Made by a program: the position numbers and the translations under genes
The notes under the pieces: model-generated
The model's input: the letters and a program-made list of their open reading frames with translations, nothing else
Told to the model about the DNA's origin: nothing
The model's database searches: none
Source: an uncultured Candidatus Saccharibacteria bacterium
GTDB lineage: Bacteria > Patescibacteriota > Minisyncoccia > Phycocordibacterales > UBA9973
Direction: 5' to 3'
NCBI GenBank assembly: GCA_964468315.1
Contig: CAYXTA010000001.1
Location: 64,277-128,276, forward strand
Length of the DNA: 64,000 bases
Shown: positions 19,115-31,988 of the stretch, in pieces
How positions within the stretch are numbered: the first letter of the stretch is position 1
How the letters are laid out: every line of letters starts with the position of its first letter

Positions 19115-20398
19115 ATGAATAAAAATACTCAATTAATTTGGCGTACAGAAGTACGTAAAGTAGAAAGTCTTAAAACATGGAGTAAAAATCCTCGTAAATT
19201 AACAAAATCAGCATTTAAAACCTTAGTGGAAAGGATTGAGCAACGCGGTTTTCACGCAGTACTTGTAATTGATACAGATGACACGATTCTTTCAGGTAAT
19301 CAGAGAAAAAATGCACTTATACATTTAGGAATTACTGAAGTAACAGTGTTGGTTCCAAACCGTAAACTTACAGAAGATGAAAGAAAAAAGATTGCTTTAG
19401 AATCTAATTTAAATGATGGGGAATGGGATTTTTCAAAATTAAAATCTTTTAACATGGATCTGCTGAGTGATATAGGTTTCCCTGATTCAGATCTTTCAAA
19501 TATCTGGTCGGAAAATCTTGAAGCTGAAGATGATAACTTTGATGAAAAACTTGAACTGTCAAAAATTAAAGTTCCAAAAACTAAACTTGGAGATCTAATT
19601 ATTATGGGAAATCATAGATTAATTTGTGGAGATTCAACGGATCCTAAAGTTCTTAAAAAGTTATTCGGAAACGAGAAAGCATCTATGATATATTCTGATC
19701 CGATTTACAATATTAAAATAAATTATAGTAAAGGGATTGGAGGTAAACAAAAATATGGTGGAAATGTAAATGACAATCGTAGCTTTGAAGAATACAAAGA
19801 ATTTCTAAATAAAAGTTTAATTAGTGCACTTGCTGTATCAAAAGATGACCTTCATGTTTTTTACTGGAATGATCAGACAGGGATAGGAATTGTACAAGAT
19901 TTATATCGTGAACTTGGTATTGAAAACAAGCGAGTATGTTTGTGGATTAAAAATGGACAGAATCCTGTGCCGAGTGTGGCGTTTAATAAATGCTATGAAC
20001 CATGCATATATGGTGTAAAAGGACGACCATATATTTCTTCAAATTTACAAAACCTCAATGAGGTCATGAATAAAGAAATGACAACTGGTAATAGTCTTAT
20101 GGAAGAAACACTTGATCATCTTGATATTTGGACAGTGAAAAGATTGTCAGGTAAAGATTACGAACATGCTACAAGTAAACCTCCAAAACTTCACGAAAAA
20201 GCTATTCGTCGTTGCACTAAGCCTGGTGATATTATTCTAGATTCATTTTCAGGTTCTTCCAGCACACTTATTAGTGCTGAACAATTAAAACGTCGAGTAT
20301 ATGCTGTCGAGCTAGAAGAAGTATTTTGTGATTTGGCGATTCGCAGGTACGAAAAATTAACAGGTAATAAAGCAAAAATAATCCATGAAAAAAAATAA
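19115..20398 (+). CDS. ParB-like nuclease domain fused to a DNA N6-adenine/N4-cytosine methyltransferase (phage/plasmid type).
   Basis: N-terminal ParB/Srx-like region (GFHAVLVIDTDDTILSGNQRKNA). MTase motif IV SDPIYNI (DPPY-like) lies before motif I ILDSFSGSSST, the beta-class order. Confidence 0.7.
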   Translation: MNKNTQLIWRTEVRKVESLKTWSKNPRKLTKSAFKTLVERIEQRGFHAVLVIDTDDTILSGNQRKNALIHLGITEVTVLVPNRKLTEDERKKIALESNLNDGEWDFSKLKSFNMDLLSDIGFPDSDLSNIWSENLEAEDDNFDEKLELSKIKVPKTKLGDLIIMGNHRLICGDSTDPKVLKKLFGNEKASMIYSDPIYNIKINYSKGIGGKQKYGGNVNDNRSFEEYKEFLNKSLISALAVSKDDLHVFYWNDQTGIGIVQDLYRELGIENKRVCLWIKNGQNPVPSVAFNKCYEPCIYGVKGRPYISSNLQNLNEVMNKEMTTGNSLMEETLDHLDIWTVKRLSGKDYEHATSKPPKLHEKAIRRCTKPGDIILDSFSGSSSTLISAEQLKRRVYAVELEEVFCDLAIRRYEKLTGNKAKIIHEKK

Positions 20399-20792
20399 AA
20401 AGAAAGATGAGTTTTTAGAACAACTCAAAAAAGTTCCAATTGTTTTAGTTGCATGTGAAAAATCTGCACTCTCTCGCAATACTGTATATCGATGGCGAAA
20501 GGAAGATAATGAATTTTCTGTTGCAATGGATCAAGCCCTTAAAGAGGGCGAAGAATTAGTAAATGATATGACTGAAAGTCAGCTCTTAAGTATGATCAAA
20601 GATAAAGAATGGTCAGCTATTTCTTTTTGGCTTCGACATAGGAATCCAAAGTTTAGAGACAAGGTTGAACTCGTCGGAAATATTAACCATACCACTCGTG
20701 AATTAACTTCTGAAGACGAAGAACTACTTAAGGAAAGTCTTCGTCTTGCATTACCAACTAATCATAAACAAAATGATGAACCTAAATCCTAA
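20385..20792 (+). CDS. Putative terminase small subunit / HTH DNA-binding protein.
   Basis: HTH-like ALSRNTVYRWRKEDNEFSVAMDQALKEG. It sits immediately upstream of the terminase large subunit gene and overlaps it. Confidence 0.45.
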   Translation: MKKNKKKDEFLEQLKKVPIVLVACEKSALSRNTVYRWRKEDNEFSVAMDQALKEGEELVNDMTESQLLSMIKDKEWSAISFWLRHRNPKFRDKVELVGNINHTTRELTSEDEELLKESLRLALPTNHKQNDEPKS

Positions 20793-22230
20793 AGAAGAAG
20801 AGATTATCAAACATATGATTAAAGATCGTACCTTTCGATTAGCATTAGTTAAAAAAAGTCACTATTGGTTTTTCTATTATTACTTCGGACAAAAATATGC
20901 AAAGTATCCAACAGCAGATTTTCAACGTGAAATATTTAATATCACAGAAAATCCTGAATTAAAAAATATTGTAATCACAGCATTTCGTGGATCAGCTAAA
21001 TCTACGATTATTACCTTGTCTTATGTGATTTGGTCGATAGTCGGAATTAAACAAAAAAAGTTTCCAATAATTCTTGGTCGAACACAATTAAACACGCAAC
21101 CAAATCTTAATGCTATTAAGAAAGAATTAGAAGAAAACGATTTATTCAGAAAAGATTTTGGTCCATTTAAGGAAGAGGTTGATACTAATGGAACCACACA
21201 ATCTATTATTCTTCCTCAATACAATGCTCAGATATCAACACGTTCAATAGGGCAAAATATTAGAGGTATTAAACATTTGCAATACAGACCGGATTTAATT
21301 ATCGCTGACGACATAGAGGACTCTGATTCAATAAAAAGTCAGAAAAATAGAGATGAGTTATTTGATTGGCTAACTGGTGATGTCATTCCAGCAGGAGATC
21401 GTGATACTCAATTAATATTCATTGGTACACCACTTCATAATGATTCAATTCTAATGCGTTTAAAAGCATTATTTCAAAATGGAGATCCTAAAAATATTTA
21501 CCGTGAATTCCCAATTGTAGATGAAAATAATATTCCTTTATGGCTTGGAAAATTTAAGACACAAGAAGACATCGATAATGAGAGAAAAAAGTGTTTTAGT
21601 GAAATTATGTGGCAACGAGAGTATTTACTCAAGATTTTAGATAGTGAAGATCAAATAATTAAGCGAGAACATATTCATTATTACGAAGAATTACTAACTG
21701 GACATTGTCGTTTTTCTGCTACCGCTATTGATCCAGCACGTTCTCTTAAATCAACTGCTGATTATACTGCTATTGTTTCAGGAAAAATGTTTGAATATGA
21801 AAAGAATAGGAAATTATATATTATGCCTAATCCAATAAATGAACGTCTTACTACAGACCAACAAATACAAAAAGTAAAAAATATTTCGAAAGGATTAAAT
21901 AATAACGAAAGTTATTCCCGTGTATATGTTGAAGATGTTGGATTTCAAGGAGTCATTACTGATTTGTTAAAAAGTGAAGGAATTCCCGCAAAACCATTTC
22001 CTGTCCGAGGTTGGAGCAAAGAAGATCGTCTTATGTCCGTATCTTCACTTATTGAACTTGGGAGAGTGGTCTTTCCAAAGAAAGGAGCTGAAAAATTACT
22101 TGAACAAATTATTGGATTTGGGAAAGAATCACATGATGATCTGGTCGATGCTTGTACAATGTTAATATTTCAAGCTTTTGAAGATTCTAAAAAACCAAGA
22201 CCAAGAATTCAGAATATTTTTATTTATTAA
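20773..22230 (+). CDS. Phage terminase large subunit.
   Basis: Walker A-like FRGSAKSTIIT. Walker B/DE LIIADDIED. C-terminal RNaseH-like nuclease region (IDPARSLKSTADYTAIVSG...VEDVGFQG...HDDLVDA). The ATG at 20773 is preferred over the track start at 20746. Confidence 0.7.
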   Translation: MMNLNPKEEEIIKHMIKDRTFRLALVKKSHYWFFYYYFGQKYAKYPTADFQREIFNITENPELKNIVITAFRGSAKSTIITLSYVIWSIVGIKQKKFPIILGRTQLNTQPNLNAIKKELEENDLFRKDFGPFKEEVDTNGTTQSIILPQYNAQISTRSIGQNIRGIKHLQYRPDLIIADDIEDSDSIKSQKNRDELFDWLTGDVIPAGDRDTQLIFIGTPLHNDSILMRLKALFQNGDPKNIYREFPIVDENNIPLWLGKFKTQEDIDNERKKCFSEIMWQREYLLKILDSEDQIIKREHIHYYEELLTGHCRFSATAIDPARSLKSTADYTAIVSGKMFEYEKNRKLYIMPNPINERLTTDQQIQKVKNISKGLNNNESYSRVYVEDVGFQGVITDLLKSEGIPAKPFPVRGWSKEDRLMSVSSLIELGRVVFPKKGAEKLLEQIIGFGKESHDDLVDACTMLIFQAFEDSKKPRPRIQNIFIY

Positions 22231-22289: not shown

Positions 22290-22841
22290 TTAGTCTAGAT
22301 CTACTACTATTATTCCTCCTCCAAATAAACTTCCATTGTATTGGAATTGGAGACCTTTTGTGTTATTAGGTATTTCAAATCCAACCCAACCCGTACGCTT
22401 ACTATTTGCAATAACAGCACCATCAAGAGATTTGTTCATATTCTCTATAATTTTATCAGTAACACTTATTTGATAACTATTACCATCTGCGTCTCGTAAA
22501 AACATTTGTCCTAATGTTGTTATATATTGTTGTGTTGATCCGGTATTTTGAATAGTTATATTTAAATTAATATATTTATTACCAGTTGAAGGTTTTGCAA
22601 ATTCTGAACCTTGTGAAAATGAAACATTATTTACTGTGACTATTGAATCACCAAGTTGTATTTTATCTCCAACTTTGTAGGTTTGATTTTGTGATTGGAC
22701 TGTTGTTGTATCAGTGGTATTATTACTTCCAACTTTTTTAGGAGTAGAACTACCAGAACTAGCTATTATTAAAATAATAATTATCACAAGAATCCAAAAC
22801 CAAACTTTTTTATAAAATTTCTTTTTAGGAGTATTCTCCAT
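22290..22841 (-). CDS. Secreted/lipoprotein-like DUF4352-type beta-sandwich protein.
   Basis: N-terminal TM/signal. Ser/Thr-rich linker. A beta-rich domain (GDKIQLGDSIVTVNNVSF...YINLNITIQNTG...WVGFEIP) typical of the DUF4352 family, which is often next to phage genes. Confidence 0.5.
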   Translation of the reverse strand: MENTPKKKFYKKVWFWILVIIIILIIASSGSSTPKKVGSNNTTDTTTVQSQNQTYKVGDKIQLGDSIVTVNNVSFSQGSEFAKPSTGNKYINLNITIQNTGSTQQYITTLGQMFLRDADGNSYQISVTDKIIENMNKSLDGAVIANSKRTGWVGFEIPNNTKGLQFQYNGSLFGGGIIVVDLD

Positions 22842-23259: not shown

Positions 23260-23916
23260 ATGATAACTGAAAAGATTACATCAGACCAAGAGAAACAATT
23301 AACACGTTTCCTTGAAGACGCTATGCGTAAACTTGACCTATCAAAAGAGCAGGCTCAGGAAATTATTAAAAACGGTGGCAAAATGCAAGCCGAAGTGCGA
23401 GATGTATTGAATAAGTACTCAATAGCAGACAAACGCTTTACATGTGTAAACACCTTTGAAATTGTTGTACCTGCTAACTACAAGCATGAAACACGTTTGG
23501 ATTCATTTTTTAAAGAAAACAAGAAAAAGTTTTATTACTACAATAATGCTATTACTGACAAAAATTTTGCTAAAGCTACAACAAAATTGGAGCCAGGTAG
23601 AAAGTTTAAAGTGAAAGTATTCCAAATCAACAACATAATAACATTAACAGATTGTACAGATTTTTTAAAAAGTCAAAACGCAGTTTTAACTGGTGCCCAA
23701 GGAGCTTCGCTTGTTTACGAACAAAAGAAAGAGGAGTTAGTAAAAGGTAAATGGGCTATTTCTTTTGACGAAAAAGATTCGTTATGGAAAGATTCTAATG
23801 GTTACTTCAGGGTGCCTTATGTGTTCGCTCGCACAGATGGAGACTTCGAGTTCCTCCTTAGTCACTTTGGGATTGCCTGGGTTGAAGGTCGCTGTCTCTT
23901 GTGCTTCTGTGACTAA
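23260..23916 (+). CDS. Hypothetical protein.
   Basis: 218-aa ORF followed by a perfect 32-bp palindromic terminator. Confidence 0.45.
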   Translation: MITEKITSDQEKQLTRFLEDAMRKLDLSKEQAQEIIKNGGKMQAEVRDVLNKYSIADKRFTCVNTFEIVVPANYKHETRLDSFFKENKKKFYYYNNAITDKNFAKATTKLEPGRKFKVKVFQINNIITLTDCTDFLKSQNAVLTGAQGASLVYEQKKEELVKGKWAISFDEKDSLWKDSNGYFRVPYVFARTDGDFEFLLSHFGIAWVEGRCLLCFCD

Positions 23917-24090: not shown

Positions 24091-25434
24091 ATGGAGAAGA
24101 ATGCAATAGGGAAGATACACAATTCAATATCTGTATCAGAAGTTCGGATCAAGTACTGCCTATACGCCAGAAAATCGACAGAGCAAGATGAGAAACAAGC
24201 GCTATCAATAGATTCACAGGTAAAAGAAATGCTTCAAATTGCGGAGCGTGAAAATCTTAATGTCGTTGAAGTAAAAAGAGAATCGCATTCAGCAAAAGAT
24301 TCAGGAGAACGGCCAGTCTTTAAGGAAATATTGGAAGATCTACGATCAGAGAAATTCAATGGATTGCTCACATGGGCGCCGGACCGATTAAGTAGAAATG
24401 CAGGTGATCTTGGCTCGCTGGTAGATCTTATGGATCAGAAGAAATTAATCCATATACAAACGTATGGACAGACATTCAAGAATTCACCGAATGAAAAATT
24501 TCTCTTGATGATCTTGTGTTCTCAGGCAAAACTAGAGAATGACAATAAAAGTATTAATGTTAAAAGGGGATTACGGGCAAGAGTAGAGATGGGGTTATGG
24601 CCATGCCGTCCACCAACAGGATACTTCAAAGAGAAAAGAACAGATAGAAAATGTCAGTCAATATTCGATCCAGATCGAGCGCCGATCATAAAGCAGATAT
24701 TTGAAAAAGTAGGATATGATGGCTGGAGCGGAAGAAAGATATATCACTGGCTCAAGCATGAGATTAAATTCAAGACTGAATTTAATATGTTTCTGAGTTT
24801 GGGTAATCTCTATCGCATACTCGAAAATTCTTTCTATTACGGACGCTTTGAATTTCCGAAAGGATCAGGGAACTGGTACAACGGAGTGCATGAACCGATA
24901 ATCTCTAAAGAATTGTTTAATATCGTCCAAACACAGATCAAGAGCCAGATCTTAGAACCACGGTCACAGCAGAAAGAATTTGCCTTTACCAAGATCATGG
25001 CATGCGGATTATGTGGATCAGGAATAACGGCTGATGAAAAGTTCAAGAGATTAAAGAATGGCGGTGTGAATCGCCATGTCTATTACAAATGTACTAGGAT
25101 TAGAGATTCAAAATGTGAGTGCGGATTTATAAATGAAGAAGACCTGATTAAGCAATTACAGATTCTCATTGATGATCTTGAAATGCAGACGGTGCCAATG
25201 AGAGAGAAGATATCGGCTGAAGTGCAGCGATTCAAGAAATTCGAACAGATGCTCTTAGGTACAAAGACACCTATTACTGTAAAAGATATAGATATACGAA
25301 ACTATGCAAAGTTTATATTGCTAGAGGGGACCGTGGATGAGAAGAGGGAATTCTTGAGGTGTTTGAGGAGTGGGATTGTGTTGGAGAATAAGAAAATATC
25401 ACTTATTAAGCCTTCTCAATATATTTTGAAATAA
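24091..25434 (+). CDS. Large serine recombinase (serine integrase).
   Basis: N-terminal resolvase catalytic motif YARKSTEQDEKQALSIDSQ (Ser nucleophile). Recombinase domain. Zn-ribbon Cys cluster (CGLCGSG...YYKCTR...C). C-terminal coiled coil. Confidence 0.8.
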   Translation: MEKNAIGKIHNSISVSEVRIKYCLYARKSTEQDEKQALSIDSQVKEMLQIAERENLNVVEVKRESHSAKDSGERPVFKEILEDLRSEKFNGLLTWAPDRLSRNAGDLGSLVDLMDQKKLIHIQTYGQTFKNSPNEKFLLMILCSQAKLENDNKSINVKRGLRARVEMGLWPCRPPTGYFKEKRTDRKCQSIFDPDRAPIIKQIFEKVGYDGWSGRKIYHWLKHEIKFKTEFNMFLSLGNLYRILENSFYYGRFEFPKGSGNWYNGVHEPIISKELFNIVQTQIKSQILEPRSQQKEFAFTKIMACGLCGSGITADEKFKRLKNGGVNRHVYYKCTRIRDSKCECGFINEEDLIKQLQILIDDLEMQTVPMREKISAEVQRFKKFEQMLLGTKTPITVKDIDIRNYAKFILLEGTVDEKREFLRCLRSGIVLENKKISLIKPSQYILK

Positions 25435-25978
25435 ACCTCTGTTTAGCATCTTCCCACATTTGATCTGTGGTTAAAATCGTATCGTATTTATATATACTTC
25501 CACCAGCACCAAAAGCTTTAAGAAATTGATTAAGATATATCTTAGGATTAATTAATAAGAATTCGTCTTCTATTTTCCATCCCTCAGTCATATCAAAGTC
25601 ATAGCTTAAACTATGGCCCGCAACGTTTATCCAACGATGTGCAATAACATTTCTCCATTCATGAATCCTTTCAGCAACAGTAGAGAATTTAGTGTCTGGT
25701 TTATCACCATCAATAAAATATTCTAAGAAGAGTTTATACCCATCTTCTCCTCCTTTGTTCCAGAAACCATGAGCAATAGTAAGAGCAATTGAATGGGTGC
25801 CGAGAAACATTAATGATGTTTGATAATTTGGAGGATTATAAAAAACGATTCGAAGCTCATTTACTAAATGATTAGCCATTGAATTGGTTATAGTGGCTAC
25901 AACTTCATATGGACCATTATCGTCGAATCTTTTTAGTCTTTGTTCTTTTGTTTCTCCAAGATGTGTATTATTTTTCAT
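25406..25978 (-). CDS. Hypothetical protein with a HEPN-like Rx4H motif (Abi_2/AbiD-like candidate RNase effector).
   Basis: EWRNVIAHRW gives R-N-x-x-x-H, the canonical HEPN Rx4-6H signature with a polar residue after Arg. It is the last gene of a three-gene minus-strand operon. Confidence 0.45.
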   Translation of the reverse strand: MKNNTHLGETKEQRLKRFDDNGPYEVVATITNSMANHLVNELRIVFYNPPNYQTSLMFLGTHSIALTIAHGFWNKGGEDGYKLFLEYFIDGDKPDTKFSTVAERIHEWRNVIAHRWINVAGHSLSYDFDMTEGWKIEDEFLLINPKIYLNQFLKAFGAGGSIYKYDTILTTDQMWEDAKQRFISKYIEKA

Positions 25979-25981
25979 AAA

Positions 25982-28408
25982 TTAGGAATTAGTTTCAAAA
26001 TCAATTCTCCTTTTTTCTTTATCTTGATCAGCTTCTTTCCTTGCTCTTTCGTCTGAAGATTTTAAAGATGGCAGAGATAGTTCTACAAATTTTCTTATAT
26101 TAGGGTTTGTGTCATCTTTGTATTTCTCTAATACCATCCATTGAGATTTATAAAAATCAGCAATACCATACTGCCCAGATACAACCCCTGTGTTGTGAAG
26201 CATGCCTCCTATTTTCTTTAGGATTTTTTCATTATTTGTGTAACTAGCTAGTTTTACTGCTAATTCTATGCCTATACCATTAAAATCATATATAAGACCG
26301 AGAGTACTTTGTATAACCTTGTCGGTAATTTTTTTTCCACCGGTTAATATTTCTAATATAGAATGTGGCGAAATTCCAAAATGTTCATTAAGTTTTGCTA
26401 GGTCGTATTTTCGTTTTGCCCCTTCTTTACTTTTTGATGCTTTTATTATCTCTGGAACAATTTTTAGGTAATCTTTGTGATTAATAACATGCTCTACAAG
26501 ATGATTATTCATATCGAATGGTATTGCATCATACCTATTGTTCCTATCAAAATAATCACTCATTGATTTATTTAATTTTGCTTCTTTTTTTATTCTCTCA
26601 ATAAAAATTCTAATAATGTCTACAGGATTCGAATATAGATTATCTAGTAAAGAATGAATATGCCAATCGATTACTGGAACTTCTATAATTTTACTTGCGA
26701 TAAATTTCTTATTTTTATCTGACCACTCACTAAAATCTATACCGCCTTCTTTACCTGAATAAATAGATAATATATTAAGATAGTTCTCCAAGAAATGTGG
26801 TTCACTTTTTAATTCTGCAACAATTAAATTCTCTATTTTTTTAGGATTAAGATTATAAAGAGCCCTGAGTGCATTTGTTGTGCTGTAATTTATGTTCCAT
26901 GAATGCTTTTTCTTTGCAAGAAAATTGAAATATTTTTTCCTATTGGTTAGGTTTGTAAGTAAAGTTAAATCTTCTTTTCTGAGAACAAGATCGGTAAATA
27001 TATCAGCATATATATGTAGAGATGCAGGAATACTCCCTATAAAATCAGGATCTTTTGTTTTGATTATAGAATCAACTCCTTTATGCCATATTTCATATTT
27101 TCGTGAAAGGCGAATACCTCTTAATAAGAAAGCTAAAAACATTTGATTAGAAAGTGGCTTCTTGTATTTGATTGCATCTTGAAGCACAGTCAATCCAATT
27201 TCTGGTTTATGAGTACCGAGTGTTTCAAGTAATAATTGGAGAGTTCTAAACTTCCATTCTCCAATAACATCGGTTTCTGTTGCAAATAAATTCAATTCAT
27301 CGGTGATCTTATTTATGTTTAAATTTGTAACATTCTTCACGTAATCAATAACATTTTCACGATTCTGTTTTTGCTGTTCACCAGAGCCAATTTCATATTT
27401 TATTGAATCATCGTGAACGAATCTACTGAATTTTTCATAGAGTGGGTCTTTTGTGATTTTGTCATACAACGGTTGAGCAATCTCATTTTGTTGCTTATGG
27501 AAGATAAAATGCCAAAACAGCAAATGCTCTATTTCCAAGCAGAAAGATAGAGATGCTTTGAGTTTTCCTTTTTTGTCGAACATTACCTTATCAAGTTCTG
27601 AGATTATATACTCGCGATTTGCTTGGATAATAAGTCCTATCGGACTAGTTCGTTCACTATTCATAGGAAACTGACATGCATGAGCGAGCAGTTGTACGAC
27701 AAGAGTCTTTGTTACATTCTTTTCGCTTTTCTTATATATTAAAAAAATAAAATCAATGATTTTCTGTCTTAAATCCTTTAAATTATCTGTACCATTAAGA
27801 TCTCCTTTTCTAAGAGTAATAGTGTCGGGTGCAGTTAAAATAGTTGCGTCAGCAGATGTTTCAAGCATTTTCTCAATCGTTATTTTAATTGGATTGAAAT
27901 TAGTTTCAAAATCATCTTTTAAGGCATGTTTTTTAATATATTTAAAGATAATATTTTGAGGATCAAGATTGACATGAGTTATTGCTTGATAGTTATACTC
28001 GGCTATCTCTTCAATTAACTTTAAAGTCGTACTTCTGACCGATAGATCTTTATGGCTAGCAAAATCAAAAGCAATTTTCACAGTCTTTTCTAGTTCGTAG
28101 TATCGAATGTTTTTTAGGAGCTCAAGTGTTTTAACTTGAACTTTTCGCCAATCTTCTCCCTTAAGACCGTGATGAAATTTTTGTGTTTTAATCCCTTTTT
28201 TCCTATAAAGAATTTCTACGCAGATTTCTATGACCACCTTAGGAACTCGGTAGAAAATAGCACTGAGATAATCCAAGGTATCAATAATCTCCTCATTTGT
28301 CTTATATTTAGGTACCTCTACTCTTTTAGATAGAGCAAAATTAAGCAAAAATTTATTTGCCGTATTATTGTTGAGGGAAGCTAATTTTGATAATTTTTGT
28401 TTATCCAT
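25982..28408 (-). CDS. Large (808 aa) alpha-helical hypothetical protein. No P-loop or other recognisable catalytic motif.
   Basis: Long ORF that overlaps the upstream gene by 8 nt and lies 3 nt from the downstream gene. Confidence 0.5.
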   Translation of the reverse strand: MDKQKLSKLASLNNNTANKFLLNFALSKRVEVPKYKTNEEIIDTLDYLSAIFYRVPKVVIEICVEILYRKKGIKTQKFHHGLKGEDWRKVQVKTLELLKNIRYYELEKTVKIAFDFASHKDLSVRSTTLKLIEEIAEYNYQAITHVNLDPQNIIFKYIKKHALKDDFETNFNPIKITIEKMLETSADATILTAPDTITLRKGDLNGTDNLKDLRQKIIDFIFLIYKKSEKNVTKTLVVQLLAHACQFPMNSERTSPIGLIIQANREYIISELDKVMFDKKGKLKASLSFCLEIEHLLFWHFIFHKQQNEIAQPLYDKITKDPLYEKFSRFVHDDSIKYEIGSGEQQKQNRENVIDYVKNVTNLNINKITDELNLFATETDVIGEWKFRTLQLLLETLGTHKPEIGLTVLQDAIKYKKPLSNQMFLAFLLRGIRLSRKYEIWHKGVDSIIKTKDPDFIGSIPASLHIYADIFTDLVLRKEDLTLLTNLTNRKKYFNFLAKKKHSWNINYSTTNALRALYNLNPKKIENLIVAELKSEPHFLENYLNILSIYSGKEGGIDFSEWSDKNKKFIASKIIEVPVIDWHIHSLLDNLYSNPVDIIRIFIERIKKEAKLNKSMSDYFDRNNRYDAIPFDMNNHLVEHVINHKDYLKIVPEIIKASKSKEGAKRKYDLAKLNEHFGISPHSILEILTGGKKITDKVIQSTLGLIYDFNGIGIELAVKLASYTNNEKILKKIGGMLHNTGVVSGQYGIADFYKSQWMVLEKYKDDTNPNIRKFVELSLPSLKSSDERARKEADQDKEKRRIDFETNS

Positions 28409-29264
28409 ATATATATTCTATACCTTTTCTATTAATTAACTCACTAAGCAGTCCTTGAGCAGCCTTACTGTCTGTGACTGACAATACGTCTCCAACTTTT
28501 GTCATAATACCACTTGAAACAAGTTTATTTGTATAAAATTCAAATTCCATAGAACTCAAGCATGACTTAGAAAGTATTGATTGTAATACAGGGTCATTGC
28601 TTACAAGAAAAGGTGAGTAAAAAAATATCAATGCTTCTAAATCTAATATTTTTTCTAGGTCTCCTTGTATGAGCTGAGATAAATTATTCTTGTATTCTAT
28701 AAGATCCTCTTTTTCTATTTTTGTTTCAGAGTTTGGGACTTCTGTTGCCAGAATGGATGGTATTTTTGTAAAAGCATTGAAAAGATCTTCAATGCTTGTA
28801 TCTCTGATAATTTTCTCGTCTTTAAAGTGAACTGTTTTTGATTGTAGATTGGTCGTTTCAATATCTTCTATTTGAAGTACGGTTTTGATGTAATCTAAGT
28901 CAATCATCTCCCAATAACAAATTTTGTTAGGAATATCTACAAAGAAGGCAAACACAGGGTTAGGACATTTTGAATAGTAGCGTAGATCTTCAATAGAGAA
29001 TTTATATTTTTTTTTACCTTTAGTATTTGTGCTTTTTAATTGATAATCTGTTCTTGCAATCTGATGTTCACCATATTTTTTAAAAGTTCTAGGACCAGAA
29101 CCACCTTGGTTAAAAAAATGAACCAATCCATCAGTTGAAGGGTTATTACCACCAATATGTTGTATATTGATTTCTTTTTGACCCAAGAAAAAACTTTTTA
29201 GAATAACCAAAGAATCTTCTTCTTGTGCATGAGTAGGACTCATCTGTTTCATTTTACCAAGCAT
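28401..29264 (-). CDS. Hypothetical protein, possibly a restriction-endonuclease-like (Mrr-cat/PD-(D/E)xK) fold.
   Basis: STDGLVHFF, then about 29 aa, then DYQLKST. This resembles the Mrr-type D...QxK arrangement, tentatively. It is the first gene of the operon, directly downstream of tRNA-Glu on the minus strand. Confidence 0.4.
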   Translation of the reverse strand: MLGKMKQMSPTHAQEEDSLVILKSFFLGQKEINIQHIGGNNPSTDGLVHFFNQGGSGPRTFKKYGEHQIARTDYQLKSTNTKGKKKYKFSIEDLRYYSKCPNPVFAFFVDIPNKICYWEMIDLDYIKTVLQIEDIETTNLQSKTVHFKDEKIIRDTSIEDLFNAFTKIPSILATEVPNSETKIEKEDLIEYKNNLSQLIQGDLEKILDLEALIFFYSPFLVSNDPVLQSILSKSCLSSMEFEFYTNKLVSSGIMTKVGDVLSVTDSKAAQGLLSELINRKGIEYIYG

Positions 29265-29374
29265 TGAACTATTTTAACATTTTTAGAATCATATTTCTTT
29301 CACATAGAATTATGTTAACGCCTTCTCGTGCGCCCGAGAACCATTATTTTGACCCATTTAGTGCTAGCTGTCAA

Positions 29375-29449
29375 TGGTGACTCTACAGGGAATCGAACCC
29401 TGATTTGATCCTTGAGAAGGACCCGTCCTAACCGTTAGACGATAGAGCC
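29375..29449 (-). tRNA. tRNA-Glu (anticodon CUC). CCA is encoded.
   Basis: Hand-folded cloverleaf of the reverse complement: GGCTCTA/TAGAGTC acceptor with one G.U, D arm GTCT..GGAC, anticodon stem GGTCC/GGATC with loop TTCTCAA, T arm CAGGG TTCGATT CCCTG, then ACCA. Confidence 0.7.
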
Positions 29450-30196: not shown

Positions 30197-31261
30197 TTAT
30201 TCTTCAGTATTTAGTTTTGGCTTATCTATTTCTAGAGTAGAAAGTTCTGGAGAAGATCCAGAAATACGCATTACGTCTTTGTCGATTTTTTTTAGTTCTT
30301 TATTTGATGAATTGTAATGATTTATAACAGTTGAAAGGGAATTGCCTAGCTTCATGTGATAGTCTTCATATGATTTTAAATGTGTACCAAGTTCTCCAAC
30401 TCTTTTTCTTATTTCTACAGCATCCTTTTCTATTTTGAGAGCATTTAAACCTTGGAGAACTGTCTGTAAATATGCGAGAAATGAAGTAGGAGAAACTATA
30501 ATAACTTTATATTTATTTGCAGCACGTTGTATAAGATTTTCATCTTCTCCTTTACCAACCCTTCCTATTAAAAGATCATAATAAATTGCTTCATGTGGTA
30601 TAAACATAAATGCAAATTCCATTGTATTTAACTCAGGGTGTATGTATTTTGAAGTTTCAACAATTCTATTTTTTAAATCATTTTCAAAAATTTTCTCTAA
30701 TCGATCTTTTTCTATTGGATTACGTTCATCGATGATACGATTATAATTTTCTAATGAGAATTTTGAATCAATAGGAATAATTTTTTCTTTTACGAATACA
30801 ACTGCATCTGGTATAAGTTCATCACCATTGTCATTTTTTCCTAATCTATATTGCATTTCAAAACTTCCTGGTGGCATAACATTTTTTAATAGTGTTTCTA
30901 GATAATATTCACCTAAAATCCCACGTTGTTTAGGGTTTTTTAAAATATTCTGTAAGCTTTCAAGTTGATCGGTAAAAGATATAACTTGTTTGTTTGTCTC
31001 ATCCAGACGAGTGAGTTTTTCTGTAACATCACGAATTATTTCATTTGATTGTGTGGAATGGAATTTCAAAGACTCGTTCATTTGTTTATGACTATCTCCG
31101 ATTTTCGCATCTACTGTGCGTGAAAGTTCGTTTATTTGAGTGAGCACTAGTTGCAAACCAACATCATTTTTCTCTGTGTTTTGATTTTTCCTACCAAATA
31201 TCAAATAAGCTATAAGTCCTCCACCAAATATTCCTATAAGTATCCAAATTAAATTTTGCAT
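30197..31261 (-). CDS. rmuC: DNA recombination protein RmuC.
   Basis: N-terminal TM and coiled coil. Conserved core IPDAVVFVKEKIIPIDSKFSLENY...FAFMFIPHEAIY. Confidence 0.75.
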   Translation of the reverse strand: MQNLIWILIGIFGGGLIAYLIFGRKNQNTEKNDVGLQLVLTQINELSRTVDAKIGDSHKQMNESLKFHSTQSNEIIRDVTEKLTRLDETNKQVISFTDQLESLQNILKNPKQRGILGEYYLETLLKNVMPPGSFEMQYRLGKNDNGDELIPDAVVFVKEKIIPIDSKFSLENYNRIIDERNPIEKDRLEKIFENDLKNRIVETSKYIHPELNTMEFAFMFIPHEAIYYDLLIGRVGKGEDENLIQRAANKYKVIIVSPTSFLAYLQTVLQGLNALKIEKDAVEIRKRVGELGTHLKSYEDYHMKLGNSLSTVINHYNSSNKELKKIDKDVMRISGSSPELSTLEIDKPKLNTEE

Positions 31262-31262
31262 A

Positions 31263-31988
31263 TTATTTTCCTAAAAAATGTTCTAATGTATAAATCCAAT
31301 CTTCTTCCATATTTTCACTCATTTTCTTTTGATTATAAAGCCATTCCAAATAACCTCGATCATTTTTGACTATATCTTCGATATTTTGTCCTGCATATTT
31401 ACCGAAATTTATTTTCCTTAAAATACTTGGATGAGAAGATATTTCAATCATTTTATTTATAGCTTCTTCTTTTGTACATTTATCTTCTTCTGTTATTTTG
31501 TTTTGTAATCTTTCAAAAAGTTTTTCTAGTACGAGTACATCACCCAATGCATCATGTGCTTGAGCTTCTATCTCTATTTCAAGTAAATATCTTAAATATT
31601 GTAAATTGTATTTTTCTATTTTTCCTTCAGGATCTAAATGTCTAGCTACACGAAGGGTACATATGAATTTCGTAGGTATTATGTCTTCTTTTGCAAGCAT
31701 AGTCATATCAAAAACTGCATTATGTGCTACAGCTACAGAATTTTGATCTTCAAAAAGAGATTTTAATTTTTCATAATTTTCACTTTCTTTAAAAGGTTTT
31801 TTATCAGCAACCATTTTGTTGCTTATGTGATGCACAGCAGAAGCTTCCGGAGGAATTTTTACATTAGGTTTGTATAATTCATTGAAAGTTTCATTTTCAG
31901 TTTTGTAAGCAATCTGACAAATTAAATCCTTGTCTGTATTTCCAGTTGTTTCTGTGTCGAAAAATATAATTTTATTTGTAGTATTCAT
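31263..31988 (-). CDS. DEDDh 3'-5' exonuclease (DnaQ/epsilon-like).
   Basis: Exo I FFDTETTG, Exo II AHNAVFDMTML, Exo III HDALGDV. Confidence 0.75.
   Translation of the reverse strand: MNTTNKIIFFDTETTGNTDKDLICQIAYKTENETFNELYKPNVKIPPEASAVHHISNKMVADKKPFKESENYEKLKSLFEDQNSVAVAHNAVFDMTMLAKEDIIPTKFICTLRVARHLDPEGKIEKYNLQYLRYLLEIEIEAQAHDALGDVLVLEKLFERLQNKITEEDKCTKEEAINKMIEISSHPSILRKINFGKYAGQNIEDIVKNDRGYLEWLYNQKKMSENMEEDWIYTLEHFLGK

Follow-up and report, generated by a model that had tools for sequence, protein, structure and literature searches.

A cluster of three minus-strand genes, at positions 25406 to 29264 in a 64,000-nucleotide stretch of DNA from an uncultured Candidatus Saccharibacteria bacterium (GenBank assembly GCA_964468315.1, contig CAYXTA010000001.1; the whole stretch is referred to here as the window), probably comprises two independent modules that are carried as cargo at the outer end of a ~10-kb serine-recombinase element beside a tRNA-Glu gene. 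Genes 1 and 2 would make up the first module, in which a DUF4365-type nuclease is coupled to a large HEAT-like solenoid. Gene 3 would be a module of its own, and its family marks the conserved flank of a slot that is filled by very different defense genes in related elements. The gene structure, the domain assignments, the swapping of effectors, the fusion and fission of the two partner genes, the independence of gene 3 and the hotspot context are all shown by the analysis. The features of the locus are as follows:

28401..29264, minus strand: gene 1, called as an open reading frame (ORF) of 287 amino acids (aa), the predicted effector-adaptor protein of the two-gene module
28770..29264, minus strand: N-terminal nuclease domain of gene 1 (aa 1-165), of DUF4365/DREN-type PD-(D/E)xK
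29130-29132, 29040-29042 and 29034-29036, minus strand: codons for D45, Q75 and K77 which, together with E15, are the catalytic candidates of gene 1
28404..28772, minus strand: C-terminal adaptor domain of gene 1 (aa ~165-287)
25982..28408, minus strand: gene 2, 808 aa, a HEAT-like alpha-solenoid and putative sensor or scaffold
25406..25978, minus strand: gene 3, 190 aa, HEPN-like; it is conserved and flanks, on the 3' side, a slot of variable defense cargo
25637..25654, minus strand: gene 3 codons R109-N110-V-I-A-H114, a candidate HEPN Rx4H active-site motif
29375..29449, minus strand: tRNA-Glu(CTC), located with ARAGORN; it bounds the cargo slot on the outside and is probably a landmark for integration
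29346..29374, minus strand: a promoter-like site (TTGACA-17-CAAAAT) between the tRNA and gene 1, weak and from a consensus scan only
24091..25434, plus strand: a large serine recombinase of 447 aa with the Pfam domains Resolvase, Recombinase and Zn_ribbon_recom

The original prediction, which was made from the sequence alone, described three tightly packed genes between a serine integrase and a tRNA-Glu, and this layout is present as described. In the ORF call genes 1 and 2 overlap by 8 nucleotides (28401-28408) and a gap of 3 nucleotides (25979-25981) lies between genes 2 and 3; ARAGORN and Pfam identify the two flanks. Gene 3 and the convergent 447-aa recombinase ORF overlap by 29 nucleotides at the 3' end of the recombinase. 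The motifs quoted at that time are in place as well: STDGLVHFF (with D45) and DYQLKST (Q75-L-K77) in gene 1, and E107-W-R109-N-V-I-A-H114-R-W in gene 3. A scan of the locus for sigma-70 promoters and terminators was uninformative, with promoter-like sites fewer than in shuffled sequences.

The relationship between genes 1 and 2 emerges from the neighborhoods of gene 2 homologues, which were collected from 80 metagenome loci and from loci fetched for individual homologues (L-numbers are locus labels). Homologues of ~800 aa, found at ~65 loci, almost always have a same-strand partner that ends between -20 and +12 nucleotides from their start, and 36 of these partners cluster with gene 1. What the partners have in common with gene 1 is only its C-terminal region (residues ~165-287); their N-terminal domains include DUF4365, HNH, PIN_12, an unknown domain of ~320 aa, and others. 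Relatives of gene 2 that reach ~1000 aa have no partner, and carry an N-terminal RelA_SpoT, TIR_2 or DUF4365 domain as a fusion instead. In two fusions the adaptor is kept between effector and solenoid (TIR in L053, DUF4365 in L132), and in relatives of ~1270 aa (P0215 and P0256) an NB-ARC STAND NTPase lies ahead of the full solenoid. Joint action of the gene 1 and gene 2 proteins is strongly favored by this fusion and fission and by the exchange of effectors on a module that stays the same. The same comparison of sequences indicates that the solenoid would be the part that remains constant and does the sensing or scaffolding, with gene 1 as the output. On annotated plasmids from Legionella adelaidensis and Pseudanabaena galeata, a "PIN domain-containing protein" is immediately followed by a gene 2 homologue of ~805 aa, and the Legionella PIN-solenoid pair adjoins an integrase/toprim island. 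The surroundings of gene 2 homologues are mobile and defense-rich, with tyrosine or serine recombinases, a Schlafen/AlbA_2 protein, a type IIG restriction-modification (R-M) enzyme and ParB-methyltransferases.

Two of these neighborhoods have features of their own. At L136 (3873-6881), and also at L137 and L138, a 1002-aa RelA_SpoT-solenoid fusion adjoins a serine recombinase and has a type IIG R-M-like enzyme (N6_Mtase/Eco57I/TaqI_C) and a ParB-methyltransferase as neighbors; the element backbone is of the kind seen in the window, but without gene 3. At L140 (3444-5050) a DUF2726 protein and two genes of the dCTP-deaminase family (DCD) lie downstream of a gene 1-2 pair whose gene 2 homologue is 37% identical to gene 2. 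The DUF2726 and DCD families are often tied to defense, and the neighborhood suggests a defense island in a different lineage.

The effector half of gene 1 is a member of the DUF4365 family, the nuclease family called DREN in the SPARDA short-Argonaute systems, and PD-(D/E)xK nuclease activity is predicted for it. Residues 61-162 match Pfam DUF4365 (PF14280) with 34.7 bits against a cut-off of 24.3 (E 2.1e-8), and homologous partners score 36.9-41.4 bits. E15, D45, Q75 and K77 are invariant across 11 homologues of 20-75% identity, and the DG...QxK stretch of gene 1 aligns weakly with DG...QIK of the solved SPARDA DREN-APAZ chain 9jsb_D. An early guess that gene 1 resembles PD-(D/E)xK nucleases, based on its D...QxK arrangement, is upheld by the above-cut-off Pfam match and by the invariance of these residues. 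The final ~110-120 residues make up a conserved domain of their own, the adaptor, that BLAST and jackhmmer searches found at the C-terminus of DUF4365 and HNH partners and of partners of ~440 and ~290 aa. In the full-text literature DUF4365 is mentioned mainly as the SPARDA effector.

Gene 2 was originally described as a large all-helical protein, possibly a sensor or scaffold, and the AlphaFold2 model, built from 47 diverse sequences, is in agreement: it is confident (predicted local distance difference test, pLDDT, 90.1; predicted template-modeling score, pTM, 0.80) and depicts a helical-repeat protein that is essentially all helical, except for a short beta-hairpin at residues 185-203. A word-indexed search returned 13 close relatives, and a profile search of 1.84 billion representatives returned 600 matches (clusters at 50% identity), 368 of them at E <= 1e-10; the family is present in Patescibacteria, Legionella, cyanobacteria and many metagenomes. 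Gene 2 has no match among the models of Pfam, NCBIfam, PADLOC and PHROGs or among GenBank phages, and no sequence link to solved structures was found. The most conserved motif of the family, T740-G-V-V-S-G-x-Y-G-I, is near the C-terminus and is not a Walker motif. This glycine-rich loop (residues 740-750) is followed by a long terminal helix (769-807) that ends in R800...F804, and the region may be an oligomerization or effector-docking surface.

The gene 3 family is independent of the gene 1-2 family, and it marks a mobile-element defense hotspot in which a conserved flank adjoins variable cargo that includes known systems. A hidden Markov model (HMM) of gene 3 has 0 matches in the 80 metagenome gene 2 loci and in L136-L142, and none of the ~65 gene 2 loci outside the close Patescibacteria relatives has gene 3. 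Among 45 non-redundant gene 3 loci there are 29 in which a co-directional gene ends <= 30 nucleotides before the gene 3 start, and these upstream genes fall into 23 unrelated clusters. Cargo of the slot includes:

L001: CD-NTase with Cap15 (CBASS)
L022: SMODS with AGS_C
L016 and L032: Shedu SduA_C
L036 and L038: a STAND NTPase of 1285 aa
L023: caspase
L018: ThiF/DUF6791
L020: 8xMP
L030: ResIII helicase
L019: DUF4209
L052: AAA_23 with DUF2326
L043: Hypoth_Ymh
L046: DUF5677

Slot contents of this kind, and the recombinase and tRNA surroundings, strongly support the position of mobile defense cargo that was first proposed for the window. The accompanying proposal of one three-gene system fails, since the genes before gene 3 include complete CBASS and Shedu systems and gene 2 occurs elsewhere without gene 3. 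Even gene 3 homologues that are >= 79% identical to the window's copy have different cargo upstream, and it is precisely from the gene 3 ATG onward that such loci resemble each other in nucleotide sequence; no att-like conserved site was found at the junction of cargo and gene 3. The complete triad recurs only in the close relatives L006-L008 and L146, where gene 2 identity is 59-77%, and in L006-L008 the same tRNA-Glu precedes gene 1 with compensatory stem changes.

Some further features of individual slots may be added here. Paired changes in the anticodon stem distinguish the tRNA-Glu(CTC) of the window from that of L006 (6984-7057), with GGGTCC...GGATC in the former and GAAGCC...GGCTT in the latter. 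The genes beyond it also differ (GreA/RmuC in the window; PaaX_M and a dcw cluster in L006), and the tRNA is either a shared insertion landmark or travels with the island. At L035 (9661-10573) a tRNA-Asn is followed directly by a gene 3 homologue, with no cargo gene in the gap and further genes downstream. An upstream partner is therefore not required for gene 3 to occur, and this arrangement may be the empty state of the slot. A protein of ~1265 aa with no Pfam domain precedes gene 3 homologues in two genomes (L004, 4201-7998; L010, 4046-7849) and is a candidate for a further unnamed defense gene. Its possible homology to gene 2 was considered for the L004 copy and rejected (hhalign probability 0.2%), and the two are unrelated. 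Other candidates of the same sort are slot genes of 572 aa (L011), 536 aa (L024) and 362 aa (L013, with related genes in L030 and L027), as well as a 463-aa protein encoded two genes upstream of gene 3 in L031 and L041. These last two contigs come from the same metagenome-assembled genome (MAG; CAYVXQ01), and on both the gene 3 homologue lies behind the same 463-aa and ~245-aa genes, with related proteins of 378 and 628 aa encoded one gene further up. Either the island is duplicated, or the two contigs are variants from different strains that ended up in one bin.

The gene 3 family, whose members are 186-193 aa long, amounted to 122 clusters when searched with a single sequence and to at least 405 (at 90% identity) when searched with a profile. 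Nearly all of 44 genome loci are labeled as Patescibacteria MAGs, the few other labels coming from bulk-binned assemblies, and the family appears confined to Patescibacteria. Gene 3 has no match in Pfam, NCBIfam, PADLOC or PHROGs, a profile search of the PDB gave no matches, and no DNA-binding domain was detected. It was rejected as a phage gene, having no relatives in IMG/VR or among GenBank phages. It was also rejected as half of an MNT-HEPN pair, there being no conserved nucleotidyltransferase (NTase) partner beside it; the only adjacent NTases are the CD-NTases of CBASS, at two loci.

Sequence conservation and the structural model make it likely that gene 3 belongs to the HEPN superfamily, and its product is probably an independent HEPN RNase. 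All 49 sequences compared, which span 44-87% identity, have R109, N110 and H114, and the same holds for H106, W108 and W116. The bare Rx4-6H pattern is by itself uninformative because it is present in 54% of gene 3 shuffles (the stricter R[NDH]x3H is present in 4%), and the motif carries weight because its residues are invariant in the 49 homologues and because of where they lie in the model. In the AlphaFold2 model (pLDDT 90.3) R109 is inside helix 98-113 and H114 is the first residue after it, in agreement with the description of HEPN helix 3 by Anantharaman et al. (2013; PMC3710099), which carries the motif at its end. The same authors define the motif as Rx4-6H with a polar residue (N, D or H) following the arginine and with family-wide conservation, and this is the pattern found in gene 3. 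The model also contains an extra helix (77-89) between helices 54-73 and 98-113, the second and third long helices, a feature that the paper likewise describes, as well as a beta-hairpin and C-terminal helices.

The two-module account would operate as follows. In module A, which comprises genes 1 and 2 as a two-component effector-plus-sensor system, the adaptor of gene 1 would dock the DUF4365 nuclease onto the gene 2 solenoid. The solenoid would recognize a phage protein or an infection cue, in analogy to the sensors at the C-terminus of Avs proteins and to DSR2 with its HEAT domain, and binding of the cue would release or assemble the nuclease, leading to degradation of DNA and abortion of the infection. 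Module B would be gene 3, encoding a stand-alone, metal-independent RNase that is expressed from the end of the cargo transcript and that may be an Abi-type effector itself or a back-up suicide effector for whatever system lies upstream.

Several points weigh against this account. The defense role is deduced from architecture and neighborhood, gene 2 has no recognizable ligand- or protein-binding signature beyond the solenoid, and the gene 1-2 system may already have been named, either in DefenseFinder or in a version of PADLOC after 2023. For gene 3, the frequency of the bare motif in shuffles must be counted here, and no HEPN profile matches the family in Pfam scans of 49 members at E <= 10, apart from one chance-level match to HEPN_Swt1 (E 0.16). 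The best Foldseek match of the gene 3 model is AbiV, at a non-significant E of 0.74, with other four-helix bundles ranking close behind. No conserved partner of gene 3 has been found, although free HEPN RNases as a rule depend on an antitoxin or activator. Gene 3 is also closely coupled in translation to the upstream cargo (gaps of 2-12 nucleotides), and a functional link to that cargo is possible. The HEPN assignment of the original prediction is thus retained for its invariant R-N-x3-H at the end of a helix and lacks a profile match or a significant structural one; the suggested membership in the Abi_2/AbiD family is not borne out, there being no Pfam Abi_2 match among the 49 members at the same threshold. 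A reading of gene 3 as a non-catalytic four-helix-bundle protein, devoid of RNase activity, whose motif is conserved for structure or binding, seems rather unlikely but deserves to be taken seriously.

The element that carries the two putative modules extends over ~10 kb, from ~19.1 kb, just after a NUDIX gene (~18.3-18.7 kb), to the tRNA-Glu. Its genes ahead of the recombinase, as annotated with PHROGs and Pfam, are:

19115-20398: ParB-N6/N4 methyltransferase
20385-20792: small terminase (TerS)
20746-22230: large terminase (TerL)
22290-22841, minus strand: DUF4352/Sie-like protein
23260-23916: an ORF of 218 aa

The recombinase, gene 3, gene 2 and gene 1 follow in that order. Neither Pfam nor PHROGs detected capsid, portal or tail genes between the NUDIX gene and the tRNA-Glu, and a complete prophage was rejected on the grounds that the terminase is present without them. 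The element looks like a remnant or satellite-like element, and it may be satellite-like with respect to Patescibacteria phages rather than a prophage. Given the lack of structural genes, the description of the integrase as "prophage-type" is only partly apt. A methyltransferase-TerS-TerL cassette adjoins gene 3 or gene 2 homologues in L004, L020, L030 and L139. Many gene 3 slots are flanked by tRNA genes, a serine recombinase of the window's type occurs within six genes in 14 of the 45 gene 3 loci, and the cargo operon is headed by an S24 repressor-like gene in five loci. Gene 3 and the recombinase are convergent and abutting in the window, L014/L148, L022, L046 and L146.

This last arrangement, recurring in at least five independent loci, and the five operons that start with the S24 repressor-like gene and end with gene 3, could be explained if gene 3 were a backbone gene of the element, such as a recombination directionality factor, a regulator or a lysogeny/maintenance factor, alongside which cargo accumulates. 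The directionality factors of serine integrases are structurally diverse, which also counts in favor of such a role. We nevertheless consider it unlikely: 31 of the 45 gene 3 loci lack a serine recombinase at a distance of up to six genes (many of the contigs are short), gene 3 lacks a detectable DNA-binding domain, and both its HEPN-like fold and the invariance of R-N-x3-H speak for an RNase.

A comparably small probability is assigned to the reading that genes 1 and 2 are not directed against phages and serve instead in addiction or in competition between mobile elements, or encode a toxin together with a large protein that confers immunity or acts as a chaperone. The pair is always on or beside mobile elements, and nuclease, PIN, RelA_SpoT and TIR domains are typical of toxins too; however, NB-ARC/STAND fusions to the same solenoid and a constant sensor with exchangeable effectors are characteristic of innate-immunity sensors, an antitoxin of 800 aa would be unusual, and the window's pair fills a slot that in related elements holds CBASS or Shedu.

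A more far-reaching extension of the two-module account, doubtful as it stands, is that the recombinase and gene 3 constitute a Patescibacteria-specific platform for cassette acquisition, a functional analogue of the integron, in which modules are captured upstream and expressed on one transcript with the HEPN RNase as the universal downstream component. If so, gene 3 would be a guard or reserve suicide effector, set off by the triggering or inhibition of the system upstream; alternatively, it would be an enzyme for processing the cargo mRNA. It would also be an anchor for systematic mining for immune systems, with the gene 1-2 family as one of several that are unnamed. Finally, that genes 1, 2 and 3 are one obligate three-component system with the HEPN RNase as a second effector is very improbable, for although the tight packing (8-nucleotide overlap and 3-nucleotide gap) and the same triad in L006-8 and L146 are in its favor, those triad loci are all close relatives that share the tRNA-Glu context, the ~65 more distant gene 2 loci lack gene 3, and gene 3 follows 23 unrelated clusters, self-sufficient CBASS and Shedu systems among them.

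Comparison with named systems places the two-module account in context. The effector domain of gene 1 is of the same Pfam family as that of SPARDA (DUF4365/DREN), and in both an adaptor links it to a sensor that is a protein of its own. In gene 1, however, the adaptor is a different domain of ~110 aa, and the sensor is a HEAT-like solenoid rather than a guide-loaded prokaryotic Argonaute (pAgo). Pfam and PADLOC give no Argonaute or APAZ match for genes 1-3, the only PADLOC match being a weak one of gene 1 to the Argonaute-associated Aga_REase-PNTD1-PNTD2 (E 0.0033). DSR2 reportedly combines a SIR2 effector with a C-terminal HEAT-repeat sensor that binds the phage tail tube, and the fused gene 2 relatives (~1000 aa) similarly have an N-terminal enzymatic effector on a HEAT-type solenoid of ~700-800 aa. 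Membership in DSR2 was rejected; neither a SIR2 NADase domain nor homology to its HEAT sensor was found. The gene 2 solenoid is the C-terminal module of the NB-ARC proteins P0215 and P0256, in the position of the phage-protein sensor of Avs, but an NTPase domain is missing from gene 2 itself, and its conserved residues include no Walker motif. It was consequently rejected as an Avs/STAND protein, NB-ARC occurring only in those two distant relatives. A constant core with interchangeable effectors (nuclease, HNH, PIN, TIR and RelA_SpoT) is what the gene 1-2 family has in common with Lamassu and CBASS; it differs in having no SMC protein, CD-NTase or second-messenger components. In the search for a known system, genes 2 and 3 had no match, and only the RelA_SpoT N-terminal domains of fused gene 2 relatives touched PDC-S33.

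Gene 3 differs from AbiV, AbiD/F and MNT-HEPN in having neither a Pfam match to Abi_2, HEPN_AbiV or another HEPN family nor an MNT antitoxin, and relative to stand-alone HEPN Abi proteins it adds the beta-hairpin and the C-terminal helices. AbiV is without the canonical histidine (PMC3710099), which gene 3 retains. The slot is itself reminiscent of other hotspots. Those of P2 and P4, on which Rousset and colleagues worked in 2022, are said to have conserved flanks that bracket a slot of changing known and unknown defense systems. The gene 3 slot is likewise bracketed by a conserved flank on an integrative element, next to an integrase. It differs in that the hosts are Patescibacteria, the recombinase is of the serine and not the tyrosine type, and the conserved flank is itself a HEPN-like gene; the window's element, moreover, has terminase and methyltransferase genes and no structural genes that could be seen.

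The logic of module A, an effector joined to a repeat sensor with swappable effectors, is already known. For the solenoid family and the adaptor domain there is no model in Pfam (2025), NCBIfam (2026) or PADLOC (2023), all named copies are annotated as "hypothetical protein" in their sources, and no description of the gene 1-2 family or of the Patescibacteria hotspot was found in the full-text literature. The gene 3 family and its Patescibacteria hotspot appear undescribed. These model collections cover neither gene 2 nor gene 3. Patescibacteria have tiny genomes and are usually described as poor in defense systems. If the two-module account is correct, genes 1 and 2 represent a widespread candidate immune system in which an adaptor plugs interchangeable effectors into one HEAT-like sensor, and gene 3 represents a new, Patescibacteria-confined HEPN-like family that is a practical anchor for the discovery of defense genes in this clade. 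The case also teaches that tight packing of an operon is not evidence for a single system.

Just beyond the tRNA-Glu and GreA, positions 30197-31988 of the window encode a protein of 354 aa with an RmuC domain and a 241-aa exonuclease that is RNase_T/ExoX-like. The Shield defense system makes use of RmuC domains, but the pair in the window looks like host housekeeping.

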